Virus record (IMG/VR): IMGVR_UViG_2534681999_000014
Span: 1 to 6,229 of that record
Source of the DNA: a virus
Taxonomy: Duplodnaviria > Heunggongvirae > Uroviricota > Caudoviricetes
Direction: 5' to 3' (one strand)
Length of the DNA stretch: 6,229 nucleotides
Positions 1-6,229 of the stretch are shown here, piece after piece; position 1 is the stretch's first letter, and every line of letters begins with the position of its first letter. The notes beneath the pieces were generated by a model, which ran no database searches, had not been told where the DNA came from, and saw only the letters and a program-made list of their open reading frames with translations. The translations under genes and the position numbers were made by a program.

Positions 1-142
1 ATTTTGTGATGCAGTGCCTGGTGCCTCCAGGTGACGTTAACCAGTTAACAATTAACGCCGGATACAGAGAATCCACCCATAACACTGTTTTTGGTTTTAA
101 CTGTTCCGCGTGCGCTTAGCCGCATTCACCGCATCACAAAAT
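1..142. repeat. Perfect 12-bp inverted repeat pair, ATTTTGTGATGC (1-12) and GCATCACAAAAT (131-142), flanking about 118 bp
   Basis: Seen directly: 131-142 is the exact reverse complement of 1-12. The left arm touches the window edge, so it may extend beyond the window. Function unknown. Confidence 0.5.
36..57. repeat. Three GTTAAC-core palindromic motifs at 8-bp spacing (GTTAAC 36-41, GTTAAC 44-49, TTAACG 53-57)
   Basis: Seen directly in ACGTTAACCAGTTAACAATTAACGCC. Regular spacing of a self-complementary hexamer suggests a protein-binding array; this is inference only. Confidence 0.35.
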
Positions 143-232
143 TCACTTTAAAAAGGGCGGCAGAGCAGTCACGGAGTAAAACTGATACCGCCAAATGTCA
201 CCAGAAAATTGATAACAGAGGGCGTTGTAGCG

Positions 233-269
233 GGGTTGTCACTTAAGCGTATGGTCAACCTGACAACCC
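233..269. other. Hairpin: 9-bp perfect inverted repeat GGGTTGTCA / TGACAACCC around a 19-nt loop that contains CTTAAG
   Basis: Seen directly: 233-241 and 261-269 are exact reverse complements. Followed by GGTGCATTTTCTGG, which is moderately T-rich. Could be a terminator of an upstream plus-strand gene or a regulatory structure; not resolved. Confidence 0.3.
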
Positions 270-461
270 GGTGCATTTTCTGGAGCAATGGAGGAAACCC
301 CAGCCATACTTACCGCCGCGCCATTTCGCGGACTGCCACAACCGGAAGCGCACGGTCGACGAAAATTTAACGATAGGCTATCTATGAACCAGCAACCTCG
401 CCGTGTGCTTTCGTGTTGTGTGCCTGCTTTTTACCACGTCAGGCGAGGTGGTCCCCGTTAT

Positions 462-507
462 TCCCCAACAACAAGGATCTTGTTAATCTGGATATCCCCA
501 ACAACAA
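462..507 (+). repeat. 13-bp direct repeat TCCCCAACAACAA x2 (462-474 and 495-507) upstream of the 546-1037 gene; a small palindrome AACAAG-gat-CTTGTT (470-484) with a GATC site lies between the copies
   Basis: Seen directly. Position about 40-85 bp upstream of the probable ATG at 546 suggests promoter or leader regulatory sites; inference. Confidence 0.35.
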
Positions 508-545
508 TAAGAGTATTGAATGTGATCGCTGAATTAACGGCAGCA

Positions 546-1037
546 ATGACGGCTATTCGTGAAACCGCCCAGATTGCAAAACTAATGAACGAGGCAAAAA
601 CTCAAGCTGAAGTAAATGCGGCTATTGGTGAACTGAACTCAAAGCTTGCATCTATTCAGCGCGAATGCGTGTCTCTCGTTGAGCTGGTGGGCACTTATCA
701 AGAAATAAATGCTTCTCTCAAAGCTAAAATTGCAGAATTTGAAAACTTTGAGGCTCAGACGGAAGGTTATATCCTTAGCCAACTTGAGTCGGGAACTTTT
801 GTGTACTCGAAGGAGGTAACCGTGAACGGCGGCAGCATAATCATGCATCTTTGTCCAAAATGTTTTGGACAAAAGATAGTATCGATACTTCAGCCATTCC
901 CGGTTAGAGAATATGAATTTTTTCATAAAAGCAGGTGCCTGTACTGTGAAGATCAGTTTCTTATGAATAAAAATCCGGATTACGTATCACCTCCATCTAT
1001 TGAAGAGTTGGCCAGAAAACTGAACGGCAATCTGTAG
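546..1037 (+). CDS. Hypothetical protein, 163 aa: N-terminal predicted coiled-coil, C-terminal CxxC-X24-CxxC zinc-ribbon-like motif; AT-rich cargo gene convergent with the leftward prophage genes
   Basis: Part of the 288-1037 ORF in the track. The first 86 codons (288-545) are R/P-rich, more GC-rich and not protein-like, so the start is placed at ATG 546 (MTAIRETAQIAKLMNEAK...). In-frame TTG 520 and GTG 526 are alternatives; the SD is weak in all cases. Cys motifs CPKC and CLYC seen in the translation. The body of the gene is visibly more AT-rich than neighbouring genes. No family recognised from memory. Confidence 0.5.
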   Translation: MTAIRETAQIAKLMNEAKTQAEVNAAIGELNSKLASIQRECVSLVELVGTYQEINASLKAKIAEFENFEAQTEGYILSQLESGTFVYSKEVTVNGGSIIMHLCPKCFGQKIVSILQPFPVREYEFFHKSRCLYCEDQFLMNKNPDYVSPPSIEELARKLNGNL

Positions 1038-1151
1038 ATTTTTACTGTTATGGATATCCAGATTGTTAAAGAGCATGCCGGATGCTTGCTTGTGTCCGGC
1101 GCGTGTGCACCACTCTCCCCCCGTGGAGGATTCCTTAATTACCAGATTTCA

Positions 1152-1304
1152 TTAGTCAGAGTTTCTTGCTAACCAGCGACGCGCGCCAGATTCGGTTTTA
1201 AACGTTTTGCTTTTGGTATACGTCATCGCGGTGAACGTGCCGTCCTGGTTGGGAAACACGCCGTACACCAGAGATTCGTTGTTGCCAAGATCGATAGTAT
1301 CCAT
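1152..1304 (-). CDS. Small prophage protein, 50 aa, DUF1391 family (YdaF/YdfA-like)
   Basis: The track ORF 1152-1343 begins with TTG; the internal ATG at 1304 is preceded by GAGG with a 6-nt spacer (GGGAAATGAGGTCAACATG on the minus strand), so the start is placed at 1304. Translation MDTIDLGNNESLVYGVFPNQDGTFTAMTYTKSKTFKTESGARRWLARNSD matches my memory of the small Rac/Qin prophage proteins YdaF/YdfA. Stop TAA at 1154-1152. Confidence 0.6.
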   Translation of the reverse strand: MDTIDLGNNESLVYGVFPNQDGTFTAMTYTKSKTFKTESGARRWLARNSD

Positions 1305-1490
1305 GTTGACCTCATTTCCCCTTAACGCCGGGTAGCGGAACAAAAACCTGCTGCATCGTTATTAAAGTTGAACCCTGCCGTCATGTTCATACGCCTCGGG
1401 CTGGCTACTTACCCCCTGACCACTGCTTGGTAACTCGAAGTATTGCCCGGCGTTCTGTGGGGCGGGGTGGGTGGTTGGTGTATGTAATCT

Positions 1491-1530
1491 ACAATAAAAA
1501 ACTGTTTTTGTGTCAACAGTTTTTAATTGT
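1491..1530. promoter_or_regulatory. OL-like operator: two 15-bp ACA-N9-TGT sites (ACAATAAAAAACTGT 1491-1505; ACAGTTTTTAATTGT 1516-1530) with a TTGACA -35-like hexamer on the minus strand in the spacer (plus coordinates 1511-1516)
   Basis: Seen directly: the first site is identical to the site at 2526-2540 and the second differs by 1 nt from 2550-2564. The location leftward of the repressor operon and upstream of the leftward DUF1391 gene matches the lambda OL/pL position. Confidence 0.6.
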
Positions 1531-1540
1531 TGTTTTGGGC

Positions 1541-1563
1541 AAAAAAATCCCTCGAAAGAGGGA
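1541..1563 (-). terminator. Rho-independent terminator for the minus-strand repressor-antitoxin-toxin operon
   Basis: Minus strand reads TCCCTC-TTTC-GAGGGA followed by TTTTTTT: a perfect 6-bp stem (1548-1553 / 1558-1563) with a 4-nt loop and a 7-U tract (1541-1547), starting 18 nt after the ParE stop codon (1584-1582). Confidence 0.55.
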
Positions 1564-1581
1564 GTATGAAAATTGTTCAAC

Positions 1582-1869
1582 TCAGATAGAGAAGGGAAAT
1601 TGTCGCCGAGAATGTGTCACGCTTACAATCTCAATGCTTGAAGCAGCTACTCTGTACAGGATTATGTAGTTAGGGTGGGTCACGATCTCTCTCAATCCAG
1701 AAACCCGTTCGCTTGGTGGATATAAGTACGGATGCTCAGATAGAGGTAATACCGATGTTTCAATGCGTATTTTTAGTCTACGTGCTGCCGGTGGGTTCTC
1801 CTTGGCGATGTAAGTTATGATCTGGCGCAAATCATCGCGAGCAGACGGTAGCCATAAAATGGGTAACAT
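1582..1869 (-). CDS. parE2: Type II toxin, ParE/RelE superfamily (ParE2-like)
   Basis: 95-aa ORF MLPILWLPSARDDLRQIITYIAKENPPAARRL...YIILYRVAASSIEIVSVTHSRRQ shows the ParE pattern (L.W.P.A..DL..I..YI...NP.AA; Y.I.YRV....IEI..V.H..R). Its ATG (1869-1867) overlaps the upstream antitoxin TAA (1871-1869) by 1 nt, the classic translationally coupled antitoxin-toxin order. The gene symbol is from memory of the E. coli O157 paaR2-paaA2-parE2 system and was not verified by search. Confidence 0.85.
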   Translation of the reverse strand: MLPILWLPSARDDLRQIITYIAKENPPAARRLKIRIETSVLPLSEHPYLYPPSERVSGLREIVTHPNYIILYRVAASSIEIVSVTHSRRQFPFSI

Positions 1870-2060
1870 TACTCGCTCTTGTTAGTTACAGCAATTTGAG
1901 CAATAAGATTTTCCATTTCAGCCATTACCTCGTCATGTGGAATTGCGGGGCGAGTGTCTGCAAGGCTTGACGTTACTTTAGTGCGCAACCATTCGTTGTA
2001 ACTGTTTTCTTGTTCGGTAGTTTCGAATTCTGAAACTATCGGAGAAAGGGCTGTACCCAT
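1869..2060 (-). CDS. paaA2: Antitoxin of the ParE toxin, 63 aa, PaaA2-like
   Basis: ORF MGTALSPIVSEFETTEQENSYNEWLRTKVTSSLADTRPAIPHDEVMAEMENLIAQIAVTNKSE lies immediately upstream of and overlaps the ParE gene. SD AGGAG sits 7 nt upstream of the ATG (2060-2058). Size and the motifs SPxVSEFET...ENSYNEWLR.KV..SLAD.RPAIPHDEV match what I recall of PaaA2; recalled, not searched. Confidence 0.75.
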   Translation of the reverse strand: MGTALSPIVSEFETTEQENSYNEWLRTKVTSSLADTRPAIPHDEVMAEMENLIAQIAVTNKSE

Positions 2061-2087
2061 GGCATAACTCCTCTTCTTGTACTGTGG

Positions 2088-2489
2088 TCACGCCCGGCGG
2101 CTTTTTTGTGCCGCCAGCCACCTAGCAATGGTTTCTTCCATTGATTTTTTCTTGTCTTTGATTTCTTGAAGCATTTTTTCTTGGTCTTCCTCAGGAAACG
2201 CACTAAAAGCTTGGAGCAGTTCGCGTTGGCGAGGACCAATTTTCATCGTGTCAGGGGTGAAAATTTGCTCACACTCTTCAGGAGGCAATAAAAACCAATG
2301 CAATGGATGCCCTGAAACCTCAACCAGTTTATCCAAACTTGAGGCTTTAGGTGTAGCCTTACCGCTGACCCATTGTTGAACAGTTTGTTGTGTCACACCA
2401 ATTCTACGGGCAAGCTCAGCCTGGCTCCATCCAGTTTCCTGAAGAAGCTTGCTGATTCTGTACATAGATACTTCTAGGGCGCTCATCAT
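2088..2489 (-). CDS. paaR2: HTH XRE-family transcriptional repressor: CI-like lysogeny repressor (RacR/DicA-like architecture) and probable third component (PaaR2-like) of the toxin-antitoxin operon
   Basis: 133-aa ORF with an N-terminal helix-turn-helix (SQAELARRIGVTQQTVQQWVSG) and a C-terminal region (ELLQAFSAFPEEDQEKMLQEIKDK) resembling the DicA-type C-terminus. Divergent from the Cro-like gene across a multi-site operator; 27 nt upstream of the antitoxin on the same strand. No SD upstream of ATG 2489, so the mRNA may be leaderless; an alternative start is M9 at 2465. Confidence 0.8.
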   Translation of the reverse strand: MMSALEVSMYRISKLLQETGWSQAELARRIGVTQQTVQQWVSGKATPKASSLDKLVEVSGHPLHWFLLPPEECEQIFTPDTMKIGPRQRELLQAFSAFPEEDQEKMLQEIKDKKKSMEETIARWLAAQKSRRA

Positions 2490-2500
2490 TATTCAATTTT

Positions 2501-2564
2501 ACAGGTAAATACTGTTAAAAGCATCACAATAAAAAACTGTTGATTGCATACAGTTTTTTATTGT
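2501..2564. promoter_or_regulatory. OR-like tripartite operator: 15-bp ACA-N9-TGT sites at 2501-2515 (ACAGGTAAATACTGT, weakest), 2526-2540 (ACAATAAAAAACTGT) and 2550-2564 (ACAGTTTTTTATTGT), centres 24-25 bp apart; divergent promoters embedded
   Basis: Seen directly: 2526-2540 and 2550-2564 are perfect reverse complements of each other. A -35-like TTGATT (2540-2545) lies in the spacer between them on the plus strand, and TATAGT (2575-2580) is a strong -10 candidate upstream of the ydaS-like SD GAGGAGG (2587-2593). On the minus strand, TAAAAT (plus 2496-2501) lies 6 nt from the repressor ATG. Confidence 0.65.
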
Positions 2565-2597
2565 AGGCTTTGCTTATAGTTTTTAGAGGAGGGCAAA

Positions 2598-2870
2598 ATG
2601 CTAGATAGCACTCGCGAAAAAATTAGGCAGAAATACACTCAGGCTGAAATAGGTCGTTATATGGGGGTCGCTCAACAGACTGTTTGGCAATGGTTTAGCT
2701 TTGGCGTTCCCCCAAAGCAGGTAATTCCGTTATGCCAACTAATGAAGTGGGAAGTTACCCCGCATGAAATCCGCCCAGATATTTATCCTAACCCAACCGA
2801 CGGTTTACCTGTTGGATGTAAGGTTAACACATCAAATGCGCCGGAGTTGATTCATGAAAATCAAGCATGA
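2598..2870 (+). CDS. ydaS: Cro-like small DNA-binding protein, YdaS family
   Basis: 90-aa ORF with strong SD GAGGAGG 4 nt upstream. HTH region AEIGRYMGVAQQTVWQWF followed by VIPLCQLMKWEVTPHEIRPDIYP resembles E. coli Rac YdaS as I recall it (…PAIERATRGEVLCEELRPDIDW). Divergent from the repressor. Confidence 0.75.
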   Translation: MLDSTREKIRQKYTQAEIGRYMGVAQQTVWQWFSFGVPPKQVIPLCQLMKWEVTPHEIRPDIYPNPTDGLPVGCKVNTSNAPELIHENQA

Positions 2871-3279
2871 ACACATCCGCATGGCGATGAATGCCTGGGC
2901 GCATCCGGACGGCGAAAAAGTACCGGCTGCGAAAATTACCAAAGCGTATTTCGAGCTGGGAATGACGTTCCCGGAACTGTATGACGACAGCCATCCGGAA
3001 GCCATGGCTCGCAATACTCAGAAAATTTTCCGCTGGGTGGAGAAAGACACTCCTGATGCGGTTAAAAAAATTCAGGCGTTGTTACCAGCGATCGAAAAAG
3101 CGATGCCGCCTCCGCTGGTGGCCCGAATGCGCAGCCACAGTTCCGCTTATTTTCGGGAGTTGGTAGAGACGAAGGAACGGCTGGTGAAAGATATTGATGA
3201 TTTCGTTGCATCAGCGATCGTTCTGTTCGATCAGATGAATCGTGGTGGCCCGGCAGGAAACACTCTGGCTGTGCATTAA
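2854..3279 (+). CDS. ydaT: YdaT-family protein (CII-like functional analog)
   Basis: 141-aa ORF starting MKIKHEHI and ending ...VH, with a central KIQALLPAI segment; these match the start, end and central motif of E. coli YdaT as I recall it. SD GGAG 7 nt upstream of the ATG. The start overlaps the ydaS-like 3' end by 17 nt. Confidence 0.75.
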   Translation: MKIKHEHIRMAMNAWAHPDGEKVPAAKITKAYFELGMTFPELYDDSHPEAMARNTQKIFRWVEKDTPDAVKKIQALLPAIEKAMPPPLVARMRSHSSAYFRELVETKERLVKDIDDFVASAIVLFDQMNRGGPAGNTLAVH

Positions 3280-3292
3280 TTGGGTAATAAAT

Positions 3293-3802
3293 ATGAGTAA
3301 TGACAAAAAATTGACACTGAGCGTTTACGAAAACAGTCCGCACATCTGGCGTGGCGGTTTATCTGATGTGGAGCTGGCAGAGTGGTTGATACATAAAGCT
3401 AATGCGCTGCTCTGGCGTTTGTCAGCCAGAGAACAGCGCAAGGAAACCAGAATAAAGCTGGCTGATGCAGAAGCGTGTGCCGGGCTTATTGAGGATTATA
3501 CAAATCTTGGTATTTCTTCAGCAGAGAGTGATCCCATTCAGCCTCTGAGCAGGGAGTCAATCCAGCACGCTGGTTGTATGGCACATCTTGTAACTGCTCG
3601 TCAACATGAGGTGGGTATTGGATCACTTCCGGCGGGATATTCGCTGATTCCAGAGCTGGTTGAAGCAAGAAAATCAGTTCAGAAAAAGAGAGATGACGCA
3701 CTTCAATTATTGAGAGAGCACTATGGCGCGATACCAGAATGCGAACAGCGTCGATACCCTGAAGGTTATGAATGGATGCAGTCTCTTTTTGAAGTTCGCT
3801 AA
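3293..3802 (+). CDS. Hypothetical protein, 169 aa, unknown function, inserted between the ydaT-like and replication genes
   Basis: Track ORF 3242-3802. The first ATG is at 3293 (MSNDKKLTLSVYENSPHIWRGG...), 14 nt after the ydaT-like stop; the region 3242-3292 overlaps the ydaT-like 3' end in another frame. Same orientation as the early-right operon. SD weak. No family recognised. Confidence 0.5.
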   Translation: MSNDKKLTLSVYENSPHIWRGGLSDVELAEWLIHKANALLWRLSAREQRKETRIKLADAEACAGLIEDYTNLGISSAESDPIQPLSRESIQHAGCMAHLVTARQHEVGIGSLPAGYSLIPELVEARKSVQKKRDDALQLLREHYGAIPECEQRRYPEGYEWMQSLFEVR

Positions 3803-4019
3803 TCAATATGTCGAGACGAAGGTATGTTTCGGCGCGCAGCCAGGCTCTGTAATCCGGGAGCATTTCGGGGCTGTTACACCAGCGGTTTGTTGCTGCAACA
3901 TTTAATACATGAGCCTGATAAAGGCTTTTCAAAAAATACATGTCGAACCTCCTCTGGTTCTGTCGATTGGGAACCACAGATTATATCCGGAGGAAGGTTC
4001 GGCACCAGATGAGGTAGCC

Positions 4020-5111
4020 ATGCGTGATTACGCAAAAGTTTCTCCGCGATTCTGGCTGGGAGAAACGGGGAGAGAACTTAGAAAGGCGGGTGCAGAAGCG
4101 CAAGTTGTTGCTTTTTACCTGATGACATCCCCTCACGCAAATATGCTGGGTTTGTATTACCTGCCAGTTTTATACCTTGCTCATGAAACCGGGCTTGGTC
4201 TGGAAGGGGCTTCAAAGGGGCTTAAAAGGGCTGTTGAAGCTGGTTTTTGTAGCTATGACCATGATGCAGAGATGGTCTGGGTCCATGAAATGGCAGCCTG
4301 GCAGGTTGGGGAAACGTTGAAGCCTGGCGATAACCGTTGTGCAGGTGTCAGGAATGAGTATGCATCATTACCTGAAAACGCTTTTCTGTCAGTGTTTTAC
4401 GACAGATATAAAACGGATTTCCATCTGGATGTGAGGCGGAATAATAGCCGAAATTCGGTAAGGGGCTTCGAAGGGGCTTTTAAGGGGCTTCGAAGCCAAG
4501 AACAGGAACAGGAGCAGGAGAAAGAACAGGAACAGGACAAAAACACTATGGTTCATGGCAAAAAAAACACCACGAACCAGGCAGGGGATGTTCAGACCGT
4601 CAATCCTGGTCAGCCAGCAGGCACGACACCGGAAGCCGATTCGGGCGCTGTGCAGCAGGTGATGACCGCAGGGTCGGAGCAATCACACCAACTGCAGCAG
4701 CCTGAAGCCGATTCCGCCATTCAGCGGGAAGCCGATCGGGTAGTCCCGGAAAGCACCGGGCAGTCTGTGGGACGAGTGGATTATCCGGATGTGTTCGAAC
4801 AGGTCTGGCGGGAATACCCGTTGCGTGCTGGGGCAAACCCGAAGAAATCCGCTTTCAGTGCCTGGAAGGCCAGATTGCGCGAGGGGGTGCCACCAGAGAC
4901 CATGCTGGATGGTGTGAGGCGTTACGCGAGATACCTGGCGGCGACCGGGAAAGCGGGAACGGAATTTGTTCAGCGAGCGACGACGTTTTTTGGGCCGGAC
5001 CGGAATTTTGAAAACCCCTGGTTGCTCCCGGTAAGCGGCACGAACAACCAGCGTTGTGTGAATCATATTTCTGAACCGGATACCGAAATTCCGCCGGGAT
5101 TCAGGGGGTGA
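4020..5111 (+). CDS. Phage replication initiation protein (lambda O-like / YdaU-position), with an internal Gln/Glu-rich linker and a conserved phage C-terminal domain
   Basis: Track ORF 3909-5111. The ATG at 4020 has SD GAGG 5 nt upstream, while ATG 3909 has none, so the start is placed at 4020 (MRDYAKVSPRFWLGETGRELRKAG...). The C-terminal segment DVFEQVWREYPLRAGANPKKSAFSAWKARL...ATTFFGPDRNFENPW resembles the conserved C-terminal domain of phage replication proteins (from memory). Position immediately upstream of the DnaC-like gene. Contains DNA iterons (see repeat features). Confidence 0.7.
   Translation: MRDYAKVSPRFWLGETGRELRKAGAEAQVVAFYLMTSPHANMLGLYYLPVLYLAHETGLGLEGASKGLKRAVEAGFCSYDHDAEMVWVHEMAAWQVGETLKPGDNRCAGVRNEYASLPENAFLSVFYDRYKTDFHLDVRRNNSRNSVRGFEGAFKGLRSQEQEQEQEKEQEQDKNTMVHGKKNTTNQAGDVQTVNPGQPAGTTPEADSGAVQQVMTAGSEQSHQLQQPEADSAIQREADRVVPESTGQSVGRVDYPDVFEQVWREYPLRAGANPKKSAFSAWKARLREGVPPETMLDGVRRYARYLAATGKAGTEFVQRATTFFGPDRNFENPWLLPVSGTNNQRCVNHISEPDTEIPPGFRG
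4204..4233. repeat. Iteron cluster A: AAGGGGCTT at 4204-4212 and 4215-4223 plus a degenerate copy (AAAGGGCTG, 4225-4233), 11-bp period
   Basis: Seen directly in GAAGGGGCTTCAAAGGGGCTTAAAAGGGCTG. Copies are read in three different reading frames (EGA / KGL / KRA), arguing for DNA-level rather than protein-level selection. Confidence 0.45.
4460..4490. repeat. Iteron cluster B: three perfect AAGGGGCTT copies at 4460-4468, 4471-4479 and 4482-4490 (exact 11-bp period), with palindromic CTTCGAAG cores; candidate replication origin inside the initiator gene
   Basis: Seen directly in TAAGGGGCTTCGAAGGGGCTTTTAAGGGGCTTCGAAGCC. The three copies are translated in three frames (RGF / EGA / KGL). Immediately followed by the linker-coding repeat and an A-rich stretch (4539-4570). 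Lambda ori is likewise a set of iterons inside the O gene. Confidence 0.5.
4500..4541 (+). repeat. In-frame hexamer array (GARCAG)n encoding the QEQEQEQEKEQEQD low-complexity linker
   Basis: Seen directly: GAACAG x2, GAGCAG, GAGAAA, GAACAG x2, GACAAA. The period is a multiple of 3 and is read in one frame, so this is a protein-level flexible acidic linker between the N- and C-terminal domains. Confidence 0.6.
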
Positions 5112-5117
5112 TGTGGC

Positions 5118-5864
5118 ATGAAAAACATTGCGGCAGCCGGGGTTCTTGAACGTATTCGCAGACTTGCACCACAGGCGTCGGTTCCACCGTACCGGACGGT
5201 GGAGGAGTGGCGGGAATGGCAACTTGCTGAAGGACGAAAACGCAGCGAGGAGATTAACCGCCAGAATCACCAGTTGCGGGTGGAAAAAATCCTGAATCGT
5301 TCGGGCATCCAGCCTCTGCACAGCAAATGCTCGTTTGCGAATTATCAGGTGCAGAACGACGGGCAAAAATACGCGCTGAGCCAGGCCAAATCCATAGCTG
5401 ACGAACTGATGACCGGGTGCACGAATTTTGTGTTCAGCGGTAAAACCGGCACCGGGAAAAATCACCTTGCAGCGGCGATGGGTAACCGGCTGATGGCGAA
5501 GGGGCGCAGCGTGATTATCGTCACCGTGTCTGATGTCATGAGCGTGTTGCATGACAGCTACGACAACGGCAAATCCGGGGAAAAATTTTTACAGGAGCTT
5601 TGCAGTGTTGATTTGCTGGTCCTGGATGAAATAGGCGTTCAGCGGGAGACGAAAAACGAGCAGGTGGTATTACACCAGATAATTGATCGCCGGACAGCAT
5701 CACTGTGCAGTGTCGGGATGTTAACAAACCTGAATCATGCCGCAATGAGTACACTTCTTGGTGAGAGGATTATGGACCGCATGACCATGAACGGTGGTCG
5801 ATGGGTGACGTTTAACTGGGATAGCTGGCGTCCAAATGTCAGCAATATGAGGGTTGTGAAGTAA
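5118..5864 (+). CDS. DnaC-like helicase loader, AAA+ ATPase of the DnaC/IstB family (lambda P functional analog, YdaV-position)
   Basis: 248-aa ORF with Walker A FSGKTGTGKNHLAAAMG and Walker B DLLVLDEIG. Start ATG 5118 follows the initiator stop (5109-5111) by 6 nt, with a G-rich SD (5103-5108). Confidence 0.9.
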   Translation: MKNIAAAGVLERIRRLAPQASVPPYRTVEEWREWQLAEGRKRSEEINRQNHQLRVEKILNRSGIQPLHSKCSFANYQVQNDGQKYALSQAKSIADELMTGCTNFVFSGKTGTGKNHLAAAMGNRLMAKGRSVIIVTVSDVMSVLHDSYDNGKSGEKFLQELCSVDLLVLDEIGVQRETKNEQVVLHQIIDRRTASLCSVGMLTNLNHAAMSTLLGERIMDRMTMNGGRWVTFNWDSWRPNVSNMRVVK

Positions 5865-5885
5865 TTTTGTCCGGAGGAAATTTTA

Positions 5886-6229
5886 ATGGAAACCGTATCT
5901 GACGCACTGAAAGCACTGAAAAAAGCCTCTTCACATGTGGTGGCAGCTCGCCTTGGAATCAGTCGTGAAGAGGCTGTCAACGAGCTGTGGGAACTCAAAA
6001 TAAATGGCGTCGTTGATAAAACTGGTCACACCTGGTTTCTGGCTGGCGAAGGTGAATCCCGGGTAACCGAAGAGCGGCCAGTAAAATCTGAAGCACAGGA
6101 TATGCTGACCGGGGAGGTCGAACAAAAAGTTACCGCAGACATGATGATTGAGTTTATCGGTCAGGATGGGGCTAAAACGTGTGAGGAACTGGCGGGTAAG
6201 TTCGGTGTCAGTACTCGCAAGGTTGCTTC
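5886..6229 (+). CDS. Partial CDS (5' end, runs off the window): hypothetical prophage protein with an N-terminal winged-helix-like segment, possibly YdaW/DUF1627-like
   Basis: Not in the supplied track because it has no stop inside the window. I translated it by hand from ATG 5886 (METVSDALKALKKASSHVVAARLGISREEAVNELWELKINGVVDKTGHTWFLAGEGE...) and found no stop codon through 6229. SD GGAGG (5873-5877) 8 nt upstream. Family assignment is a weak recollection. Confidence 0.6.
   Translation, partial: METVSDALKALKKASSHVVAARLGISREEAVNELWELKINGVVDKTGHTWFLAGEGESRVTEERPVKSEAQDMLTGEVEQKVTADMMIEFIGQDGAKTCEELAGKFGVSTRKVA

Follow-up and report, generated by a model that had tools for sequence, protein, structure and literature searches.

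DNA-level repeats point to a probable replication origin inside the initiator gene of a lambdoid prophage

Introduction

An origin of replication inside the gene of its own initiator is a textbook kind of element. The lambda origin lies within gene O, where four inverted-repeat iterons of ~19 base pairs (bp), bound by O, precede an A+T-rich region of 40 bp at which the DNA opens (PMC5043065). In SPP1, oriL is embedded in gene 38 and its boxes are bound by G38P; it replicates with the loader and the helicase in trans (PMC5737612). A comparable arrangement is considered here for the window, a stretch of 6,229 nucleotides (nt) covering positions 1 to 6,229 of the Caudoviricetes virus record IMGVR_UViG_2534681999_000014. 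In the window a 9-bp word, AAGGGGCTT, recurs within a gene at 4020-5111 whose product is a putative replication initiator. The repeats are probably iterons, i.e. initiator-binding sites, of a prophage origin located within the initiator gene and bound by the gene's own product.

The computational evidence comprises the repeat itself, selection on it at the DNA level, its conserved position, its co-variation with the type of N-terminal domain, the predicted fold of that domain, and the gene order. Specific to this instance are the initiator family, a very short iteron, a bipartite layout, the overlap of one repeat cluster with codons of the presumed recognition helix, and a hexamer tract in place of an obvious A+T-rich region. 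A literature search found no description of the AAGGGGCTT repeats, the hexamer tract or an origin for this initiator family in phage papers.

The repeat array in the window

The gene and the repeat elements inside it are as follows.
4020 to 5111, + strand: initiator gene, 363 amino acids; RefSeq annotation, hypothetical protein
4204 to 4223, + strand: putative iteron cluster A, two exact copies of AAGGGGCTT at 4204 and 4215; encodes E62-G-A-S-K-G-L68
4225 to 4233 (4225/4226), + strand: degenerate third copy, AAAGGGCTG, with 2 to 3 mismatches
4460 to 4490, + strand: putative iteron cluster B, three exact copies of AAGGGGCTT in three frames; encodes V147-L157, predicted disordered
4491 to 4496, + strand: junction CGAAGC (codons R158 and S159), conserved; completes the palindrome CTTCGAAG

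Five exact copies of AAGGGGCTT, all on the + strand, occupy 4204-4212, 4215-4223, 4460-4468, 4471-4479 and 4482-4490; the 6229-base window holds no exact copy outside these sites. In 200 dinucleotide-preserving shuffles the mean is 0.04 copies, and none contains as many as five. Tandem Repeats Finder calls a period of 11 for both clusters, which are 245 bp apart. An earlier note, made on this DNA from its letters alone, had described five perfect copies in two clusters with an 11-bp period, and this description is borne out. With two mismatches allowed, 21 matches are found against 20.3 expected over the whole window, without enrichment; it is the exact, phased copies that carry the repeat signal. 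With its AAG-NNN-CTT pattern the word is close to symmetric, and in the logo the symmetry is limited to the outer AAG...CTT.

The gene start is placed at 4020 and not at the ATG at 3909, since all relatives begin at MRDY. Counted from this start, the copy at 4204 is read as E-G-A, 4215 as K-G-L, 4460 as (V)R-G-F, 4471 as E-G-A and 4482 as K-G-L. All three reading frames are used by the five copies; the statement of the earlier note that one motif is translated in three frames (EGA, KGL, RGF) agrees with this count. The degenerate copy mentioned in the same note exists, but it is missing at the corresponding position in the close relatives L002 and L003. It is not counted as a conserved site for this reason, and is probably non-functional.

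The junction directly after cluster B, CTTCGAAGC followed by CAGGAA, is present in almost every relative. Among sequences with the two residues it encodes, the codons are CGA in 12/12 and AGC in 22/22. On this pattern CGAAGC looks like a terminal half-site. Codons 72-73 (4233-4240), after cluster A, are also nearly fixed in relatives as ATC GAA (0.87 and 0.86), giving ATCGAAGC, where the window carries GTTGAAGC. ATC GAA echoes the junction and may represent a half-site ~20 bp after cluster A.

The near-palindromic iterons also give rise to a perfect 10-bp inverted repeat, GGCTTCGAAG / CTTCGAAGCC, at 4464-4473 and 4488-4497. The single strand of cluster B has a folding energy of -13.5 kcal/mol (z = -3.67), which makes a cruciform or hairpin possible there. 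One alternative is that the repeat acts as RNA or as an unusual DNA structure, such as a G-quadruplex-like set of G-runs or an mRNA hairpin affecting translation. Cluster B has three GGGG runs with 7 nt between them, and its strand folds better than shuffled controls. However, most relatives have CCCC on the coding strand, which gives a different RNA and places the G-runs on the other strand. Moreover, a quadruplex needs four runs, whereas cluster B has three and cluster A has two exact ones plus a degenerate GGG, and no Rfam family matches the region. This explanation is very improbable.

Conservation of the DNA word across relatives

Relatives of the N-terminal domain were collected from annotated phages (L002-L010), IMG/VR viral contigs and one genome per species, giving ~146 loci. 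They span Enterobacterales, Acinetobacter, Burkholderiales, Xanthomonadales and alphaproteobacteria, and include metagenome-assembled genomes of Acidobacteriota, Planctomycetota, Bacteroidota and Spirochaetota. Dereplication left 71 genes, in which the motif was counted with up to 1 mismatch.

Where the N-terminal domain is at least ~45% identical, essentially every gene carries two copies of the 9-mer (up to 1 mismatch), 11 bp apart, at gene nt ~182-196. A second site lies directly 5' of the linker-coding tract and holds 2 to 8 copies with an 11-bp period. In the 71 genes the density of the word is 7.95 per kb in the first 620 nt and 0.285 per kb elsewhere in the loci, a 28-fold difference; the latter value is about chance level. 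Of 184 neighbouring pairs, 158 have a spacing of exactly 11 bp.

The word is kept even where this changes the protein. Cluster B is entirely in the reverse orientation (AAGCCCCTT) in 46 of the 71 genes, entirely forward, as in the window, in 8, and mixed in 16. The flip to AAGCCCCTT turns EGASKGL or RGFEGAFKGL into (Q)APSKPL, EAPSEPL or EAPPKPL. In L069 and L070 cluster A, too, is reversed and expanded, putting EAPSVPLPSPFQGPL into the domain with the peptide EAPSVPLPSPF; in several other relatives the second copy of cluster A alters KGL to KAL.

Codon choice gives a further line of evidence. In 38 dereplicated genes that encode EGAxKGL at cluster A, picked by peptide alone and compared with the background of the same genes, glycine is written GGG in 37/38 and 33/38 (background 0.22), leucine CTT in 35/38 (0.12) and alanine GCT in 32/38 (0.18). 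Glutamate is GAA and lysine AAG in 38/38 each (backgrounds 0.49 and 0.63). A codon-by-codon scan of an alignment selected without reference to the motif finds runs of consecutive near-fixed synonymous codons only at 62-64, 66-68 and 151-160, the last block including the invariant CGA-AGC; elsewhere there are scattered single fixed codons and the pair 72-73.

Taken together, these comparisons indicate that the repeat is under selection at the DNA level. Homologues that keep the peptide and lose the DNA repeat would have spoken for a constraint on the protein; the opposite is found in the ~146 loci, where the repeat is kept and the peptide rewritten. The notion that the repeat is merely a repeated peptide (EGA/KGL) or a chance occurrence, with the DNA unconstrained, is refuted by the comparative data and retains next to no probability. 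The cluster A peptide EGASKGL is itself well conserved, which would suit it. Yet so few copies are expected by chance, three frames are used, the flips rewrite the peptide and synonymous positions are fixed; in addition, the peptide of cluster B, in a segment with predicted disorder, differs from one relative to another.

Co-variation with the N-terminal domain

Less closely related subfamilies carry other words at the same two positions. In a subfamily with ~30% identity (L010, L074-L090 and others) the word is GAAAGGGTT, found at nt 176/187 and 408/419; with a 3-residue gap, these are homologous columns. L137-L143 carry repeats of the GAAGCCTT type with a 12-bp period at ~174/186/198 and ~393-451, and L144 has TCGCGGAAG repeats. 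L146, from a Clostridia metagenome-assembled genome, has five copies of ACGGTATCGA with an 11-bp period at nt 401-455, just ahead of a QD tract.

In the phages vB_EcoS-689R5 and Tritos (L147 and L148) the C-terminal half of the protein is 92% identical to that of the window, and the N-terminal domain is unrelated. Their repeats, arranged as in the window, are TGTCACG, two inside the N-terminal domain (nt 137-165) and five before a DKDTDK-coding tract (nt 388-438). Directly past the hexamer tract, at ~4540-4548, the homology of these and other E. coli phages to the window sets in, which marks a mosaic joint. Separately, in 2330 E. coli records the best match, whatever part of the query it spans, falls in the 90-95% identity band, the level reached by the C-terminal half alone in its matches to these phages.

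Such co-variation would be expected of repeats that are read by the N-terminal domain. The N-terminal domain, both clusters and the hexamer tract travel as one specificity module, with the C-terminal module and the loader exchangeable, and a bipartite arrangement within the gene appears to be the general design of a large superfamily. An array of binding sites specific to the type of N-terminal domain is strongly supported. The proposal of the earlier note that the repeat is constrained at the DNA level as a binding site likewise gains strong support from the orientation flips, the fixed synonymous codons and the subfamily co-variation.

The repeats might instead be bound by another factor, a host or phage protein, or form a structural or recombination element, e.g. 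a joint for module swapping. Homology to phages with other N-terminal domains starts ~50 bp after cluster B, at the mosaic boundary, and the perfect 10-bp inverted repeat of cluster B folds well when single-stranded (at the z-score given above); both features would suit such an element. Against this, the repeat word tracks the N-terminal domain while the C-terminal module and the loader may stay the same (L002 compared with L010; the window compared with L147), and the upstream genes vary widely among relatives that share the 9-mer. A host factor cannot account for conservation from Enterobacteria to Acidobacteriota, and the mosaic joint falls after the hexamer tract, outside the iterons. Binding by another factor or a structural role is therefore considered quite improbable.

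The initiator protein

Two coding regions within the initiator gene are relevant here.
4032 to 4448, + strand: N-terminal folded domain, residues 5-143; predicted winged helix-turn-helix
5037 to 5108, + strand: DnaT-like C-terminal 24 residues; tail SEPDTEIPPGFRG, aligned with the end of E. coli DnaT, SEPDNHIPPGFRG

Along the protein, the winged-helix domain at the N-terminus is followed by an acidic QE linker, then by a low-complexity region that varies, and last by the C-terminal module with the DnaT-like tail. It matches phrog_1701 over residues 1-363 (E 8.9e-149), and its C-terminal half matches phrog_3729 and phrog_270, both labelled 'replication initiation protein'; PHROG labels for the protein also include 'DnaD-like helicase loader' and 'replisome organizer'. 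No Pfam family matches at E up to 0.01, including Phage_rep_org_N/DnaD-like, and no NCBIfam or PDB-sequence family matches beyond the tail. The tail itself aligns with DnaT at E 0.019 against PDB sequences. The NCBIfam DnaT model covers residues 340-363 only and scores 17.8 bits against an equivalog cut-off of 201; the tail accounts for the label 'primosomal protein I' on relatives. In some relatives the N-terminal domain is joined to other C-terminal domains (PF09524, PF17948).

An AlphaFold2 model of residues 1-160, built with 43 aligned relatives, has a mean predicted local distance difference test score (pLDDT) of 83 and a predicted template modelling score of 0.77. It is a canonical winged helix (H1 25-36, S1 45-47, H2 49-57, H3 60-73, wing 77-88, then extra helices), and its fold matches are generic winged-helix proteins only. 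Residues 144-160 are disordered in the model, with pLDDT below 50. In this model the cluster A codons (62-68) are predicted to form the N-terminal part of H3, the presumed recognition helix. Cluster B encodes a disordered segment, which leaves its peptide free to change.

A further repeat lies in the C-terminal half of the gene. Three CCGGAAGCCGATTC-like sequences are found at 4629-4642, 4701-4714 and 4725-4738 (spacing 72 and 24 nt), encoding PEADS, PEADS and READR, and L147 has four such copies. Because all copies share one reading frame, a peptide-level and a DNA-level repeat are indistinguishable here.

The region after the iterons

Three elements lie around cluster B.
4497 to 4538, + strand: hexanucleotide tract (CARGAR)n, Tandem Repeats Finder period 6; encodes QEQEQEQEKEQEQD, the QE linker
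4381 to 4420, strand not assigned: least stable duplex segment in the gene, between the clusters, ~40 bp 5' of cluster B; nearest-neighbour free energy at the 4.8th percentile of the window
4549 to 4579, strand not assigned: imperfect hairpin with arms TGGTTCATGG and CCACGAACCA and an A-rich loop, enclosing eight A in a row; terminator-like on the - strand

The top strand of the tract is 85% purine in the window, and 133 of 146 loci have the tract in the + orientation. L073 (nt 469-498, PVPVPVPV) and L078 (nt 392-421, PAPAPAP) carry its reverse complement, and a few genes have other dipeptide repeats (QA, TE/AE or PE) in place of QE. Codon usage in the tract follows the background, except in low-GC genomes, and gives no clear DNA-level signal. 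The tract is either merely a flexible acidic linker or a part of the origin, as a candidate unwinding or loading region.

The Gln/Glu linker tract and an A-rich stretch do come after cluster B; with a GC fraction of 0.40-0.47 across 4500-4580, the A+T enrichment there is only mild. In relatives, the lowest relative GC is found 100-140 nt before the end of the tract, and the segment at 4381-4420 is an alternative candidate opening site. For the hairpin at 4549-4579, single-strand folding gives -5.9 kcal/mol (z = -1.96). Within the C-terminal module common to other phages this hairpin comes first, and a similar element exists in L147. It may signal loading or priming, or terminate antisense transcription. 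A promoter and terminator scan gave nothing above shuffled expectation, this hairpin being the only element noted.

Gene neighbourhood and prophage context

The context was established from the annotated neighbourhood and from Pfam, NCBIfam and PHROG profile searches. E. coli O157:H7 chromosomes match a 1401-bp query (window 3800-5200) with 100% identity, and the full module occurs in at least 470 complete E. coli genomes. By these matches, the window is the early region of an E. coli O157:H7 lambdoid prophage. Besides the initiator gene, it includes the following.
Within the lambdoid early region: RelBE toxin-antitoxin pair
2088-2489, - strand: repressor with a helix-turn-helix domain and without a peptidase domain
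2598-2870: Cro/YdaS-like gene
2854-3279: YdaT-like gene
3486-3941, - strand: ECs1072-family gene, between the cro/ydaT operon and the initiator gene
5118 to 5864, + strand: DnaC-type helicase loader gene, directly downstream of the initiator gene

The loader product matches NF009043 (E 1.6e-153), Pfam IstB_IS21 and Bac_DnaA, and phrog_50 ('DnaC-like helicase loader'); it scores 298.7 bits on the DnaC equivalog, under the cut-off of 357. The ECs1072-family gene, on the opposite strand, interrupts a stretch that in lambda forms one rightward operon. Also present, at 155-206 on the - strand, is a full-length DicF small RNA (Rfam RF00039, 77 bits; gathering score 48), consistent with dicB/ydfB-type genes annotated alongside in the matching O157 chromosome.

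A study of O157 Sakai describes lambdoid prophages (Sp4 and others) with DnaC-type loaders and repressors without a peptidase domain, and names no iterons or origin for the module with the DnaC-type loader (PMC2669165). The window is of the same kind; that it is Sp4 itself we only infer. A plasmid collection was also searched for the module as sole replicon, and the matches were prophages in chromosomes, megaplasmids or mis-assigned contigs; a 32-kb Klebsiella 'plasmid' with the module carries chromosomal genes.

Proposed mechanism and weight of the readings

Binding, oligomerisation, the opening site, helicase recruitment and origin firing are proposed here by analogy with lambda and SPP1. 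The 4020-5111 product would recognise the 9-bp word through its winged-helix N-terminal domain, and given the near symmetry of the word either orientation of a site should work. The 11-bp repeat would place the bound proteins on one face of the helix, forming a nucleoprotein complex on cluster B and a second, smaller one on cluster A, 245 bp upstream. The resulting strain might open nearby DNA; candidates are the (CAGGAR)n tract with the A-run 3' of cluster B and, alternatively, the inter-cluster segment 4381-4420. The C-terminal module, which is paired with different N-terminal domains in other phages, would then recruit host DnaB via the DnaC-type loader of the next gene.

Several points weigh against an origin at this site. 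No binding or replication experiments for the initiator family were found in the literature. The 9-bp core is short for an iteron, and initiator sites within a gene could serve regulation instead of, or besides, initiation. Composition, nearest-neighbour stability and the family-wide GC profile give no convincing A+T-rich element beside cluster B: the duplex stability of the 40 bp at 4530-4569 lies no lower than the 13th percentile of the window, and no AT-rich dip after the tract is conserved across relatives. The lambda-like topology proposed in the earlier note thus holds in part. Iterons in the initiator gene are followed by a linker-coding tract and an A-rich stretch, but the A+T-rich half of the comparison is weak. 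Matches to the DnaA box stay below chance, with none close to the repeats. Finally, published induction data on O157 Sakai prophages with a DnaC-type loader contain no sign of autonomous firing, Sp4 being amplified solely via regional replication of its neighbour Sp5 (PMC2669165). The caveat concerns the prophage of the window and does not extend to the family.

The regulatory possibility deserves separate weighing. Here the sites bind the initiator and serve control (auto-repression, titration, or origin pairing, 'handcuffing'), with the true origin elsewhere. The sites are found only inside coding sequence, where bound protein would block transcription of the initiator and loader genes; two separated, usually inverted clusters suit looping; no clear A+T-rich region lies alongside; and iteron-plasmid sites do both initiation and control (PMC5043065). 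Nevertheless, the window shows no other repeat array or candidate origin, and motif density in the flanks of relatives is at chance. The order of array, linker tract, exchangeable C-terminal module and loader gene fits proven in-gene origins (PMC5043065, PMC5737612), and control and initiation are not mutually exclusive. A purely regulatory role is judged unlikely.

A more elaborate version of the origin, bipartite and self-referential, goes beyond the lambda model with helix-coded iterons, inverted clusters and a hexamer tract that replaces the A+T-rich region. It is put forward tentatively, as a doubtful extension. Its first part is that cluster A is written in the codons of the recognition helix presumed, from the structure model, to read it, so that specificity and site would have to change together; EGASKGL pairs with AAGGGGCTT, and ERVSKGF pairs with GAAAGGGTT. 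The second part is that the clusters, normally inverted relative to each other and ~245 bp apart, would bracket or loop a melting segment. The third is that the hexamer tract is a DNA element, a purine-rich strand with triplet periodicity that may act as a loading platform for the DnaT-like module or for DnaC-DnaB. Its retention in reverse-complemented form in L073 (PVPVPV) and L078 (PAPAPA) would be explained if the tract is such an element.

Significance

If an origin does lie within the initiator gene, it would be defined for a widespread, undescribed family of temperate-phage initiators, with members in Eru4-type Stx1 phages, Klebsiella and Acinetobacter prophages and relatives from several bacterial phyla. 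A short exact DNA word could then be used for origin annotation, for tests of origin-based interference or incompatibility against Stx and other prophages, and for minimal replicons. The locus would also be an unusually clean natural case of overlapping codes, in which coding sequence is constrained by a putative DNA-binding site in three frames and on both strands. And the comparative data make the co-evolution of initiator and iterons directly testable.

Comparison with known systems

One close parallel is the lambda origin. In both, the origin (here putative) lies in the initiator gene, with the array of sites at the boundary between the N-terminal-domain and linker coding regions (PMC5043065). 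The N-terminal domain and the iterons form an exchangeable specificity module, the C-terminal part (in the window, presumably) handles the helicase loader, and the gene lies in a rightward early operon after cro- and cII-like genes. The components differ: no homology to lambda O was detected in the window initiator, which matches no Pfam family, and the loader is of the DnaC/IstB type, not the P type. The window has a 9-bp core in an 11-bp unit instead of four ~19-bp inverted-repeat sites, an extra cluster 245 bp upstream within the DNA-binding-domain coding region, and, in place of a clear 40-bp A+T-rich region, the (CAGGAR)n tract after the iterons.

The SPP1 system (oriL with G38P, G39P and G40P) resembles the window in having repeated boxes inside the organiser gene, putative in the window, and the loader gene next to it (PMC5737612). 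The PHROG labels of the window initiator ('DnaD-like helicase loader', 'replisome organizer') point to the same type. Homology between the two is not detectable. Next to its boxes SPP1 has an AT-rich unwinding element; it also has oriR, a second origin, and a helicase of its own, whereas the window presumably uses host DnaB and has no evident AT-rich element. Iteron plasmids (RK2, F, pSC101, P1, R6K) share helix-phased direct repeats, 11 bp in the window, and a winged-helix initiator, which in the window is a model. Their iterons are longer and lie outside the rep gene, with DnaA boxes and AT-rich repeats, none of which the window has.

A further named relative is Shigella phage 75/02 Stx, the type phage of Eru4. 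Eru typing is by gene content, and the report that assigns this phage to Eru4 lists its proteins as unknown or putative, naming no origin or repeats (PMC8951638). Its initiator belongs to the same protein family as that of the window, with an N-terminal domain 80% identical and the same gene order; in the gene, cluster A holds two forward copies of the word and cluster B two reversed ones.

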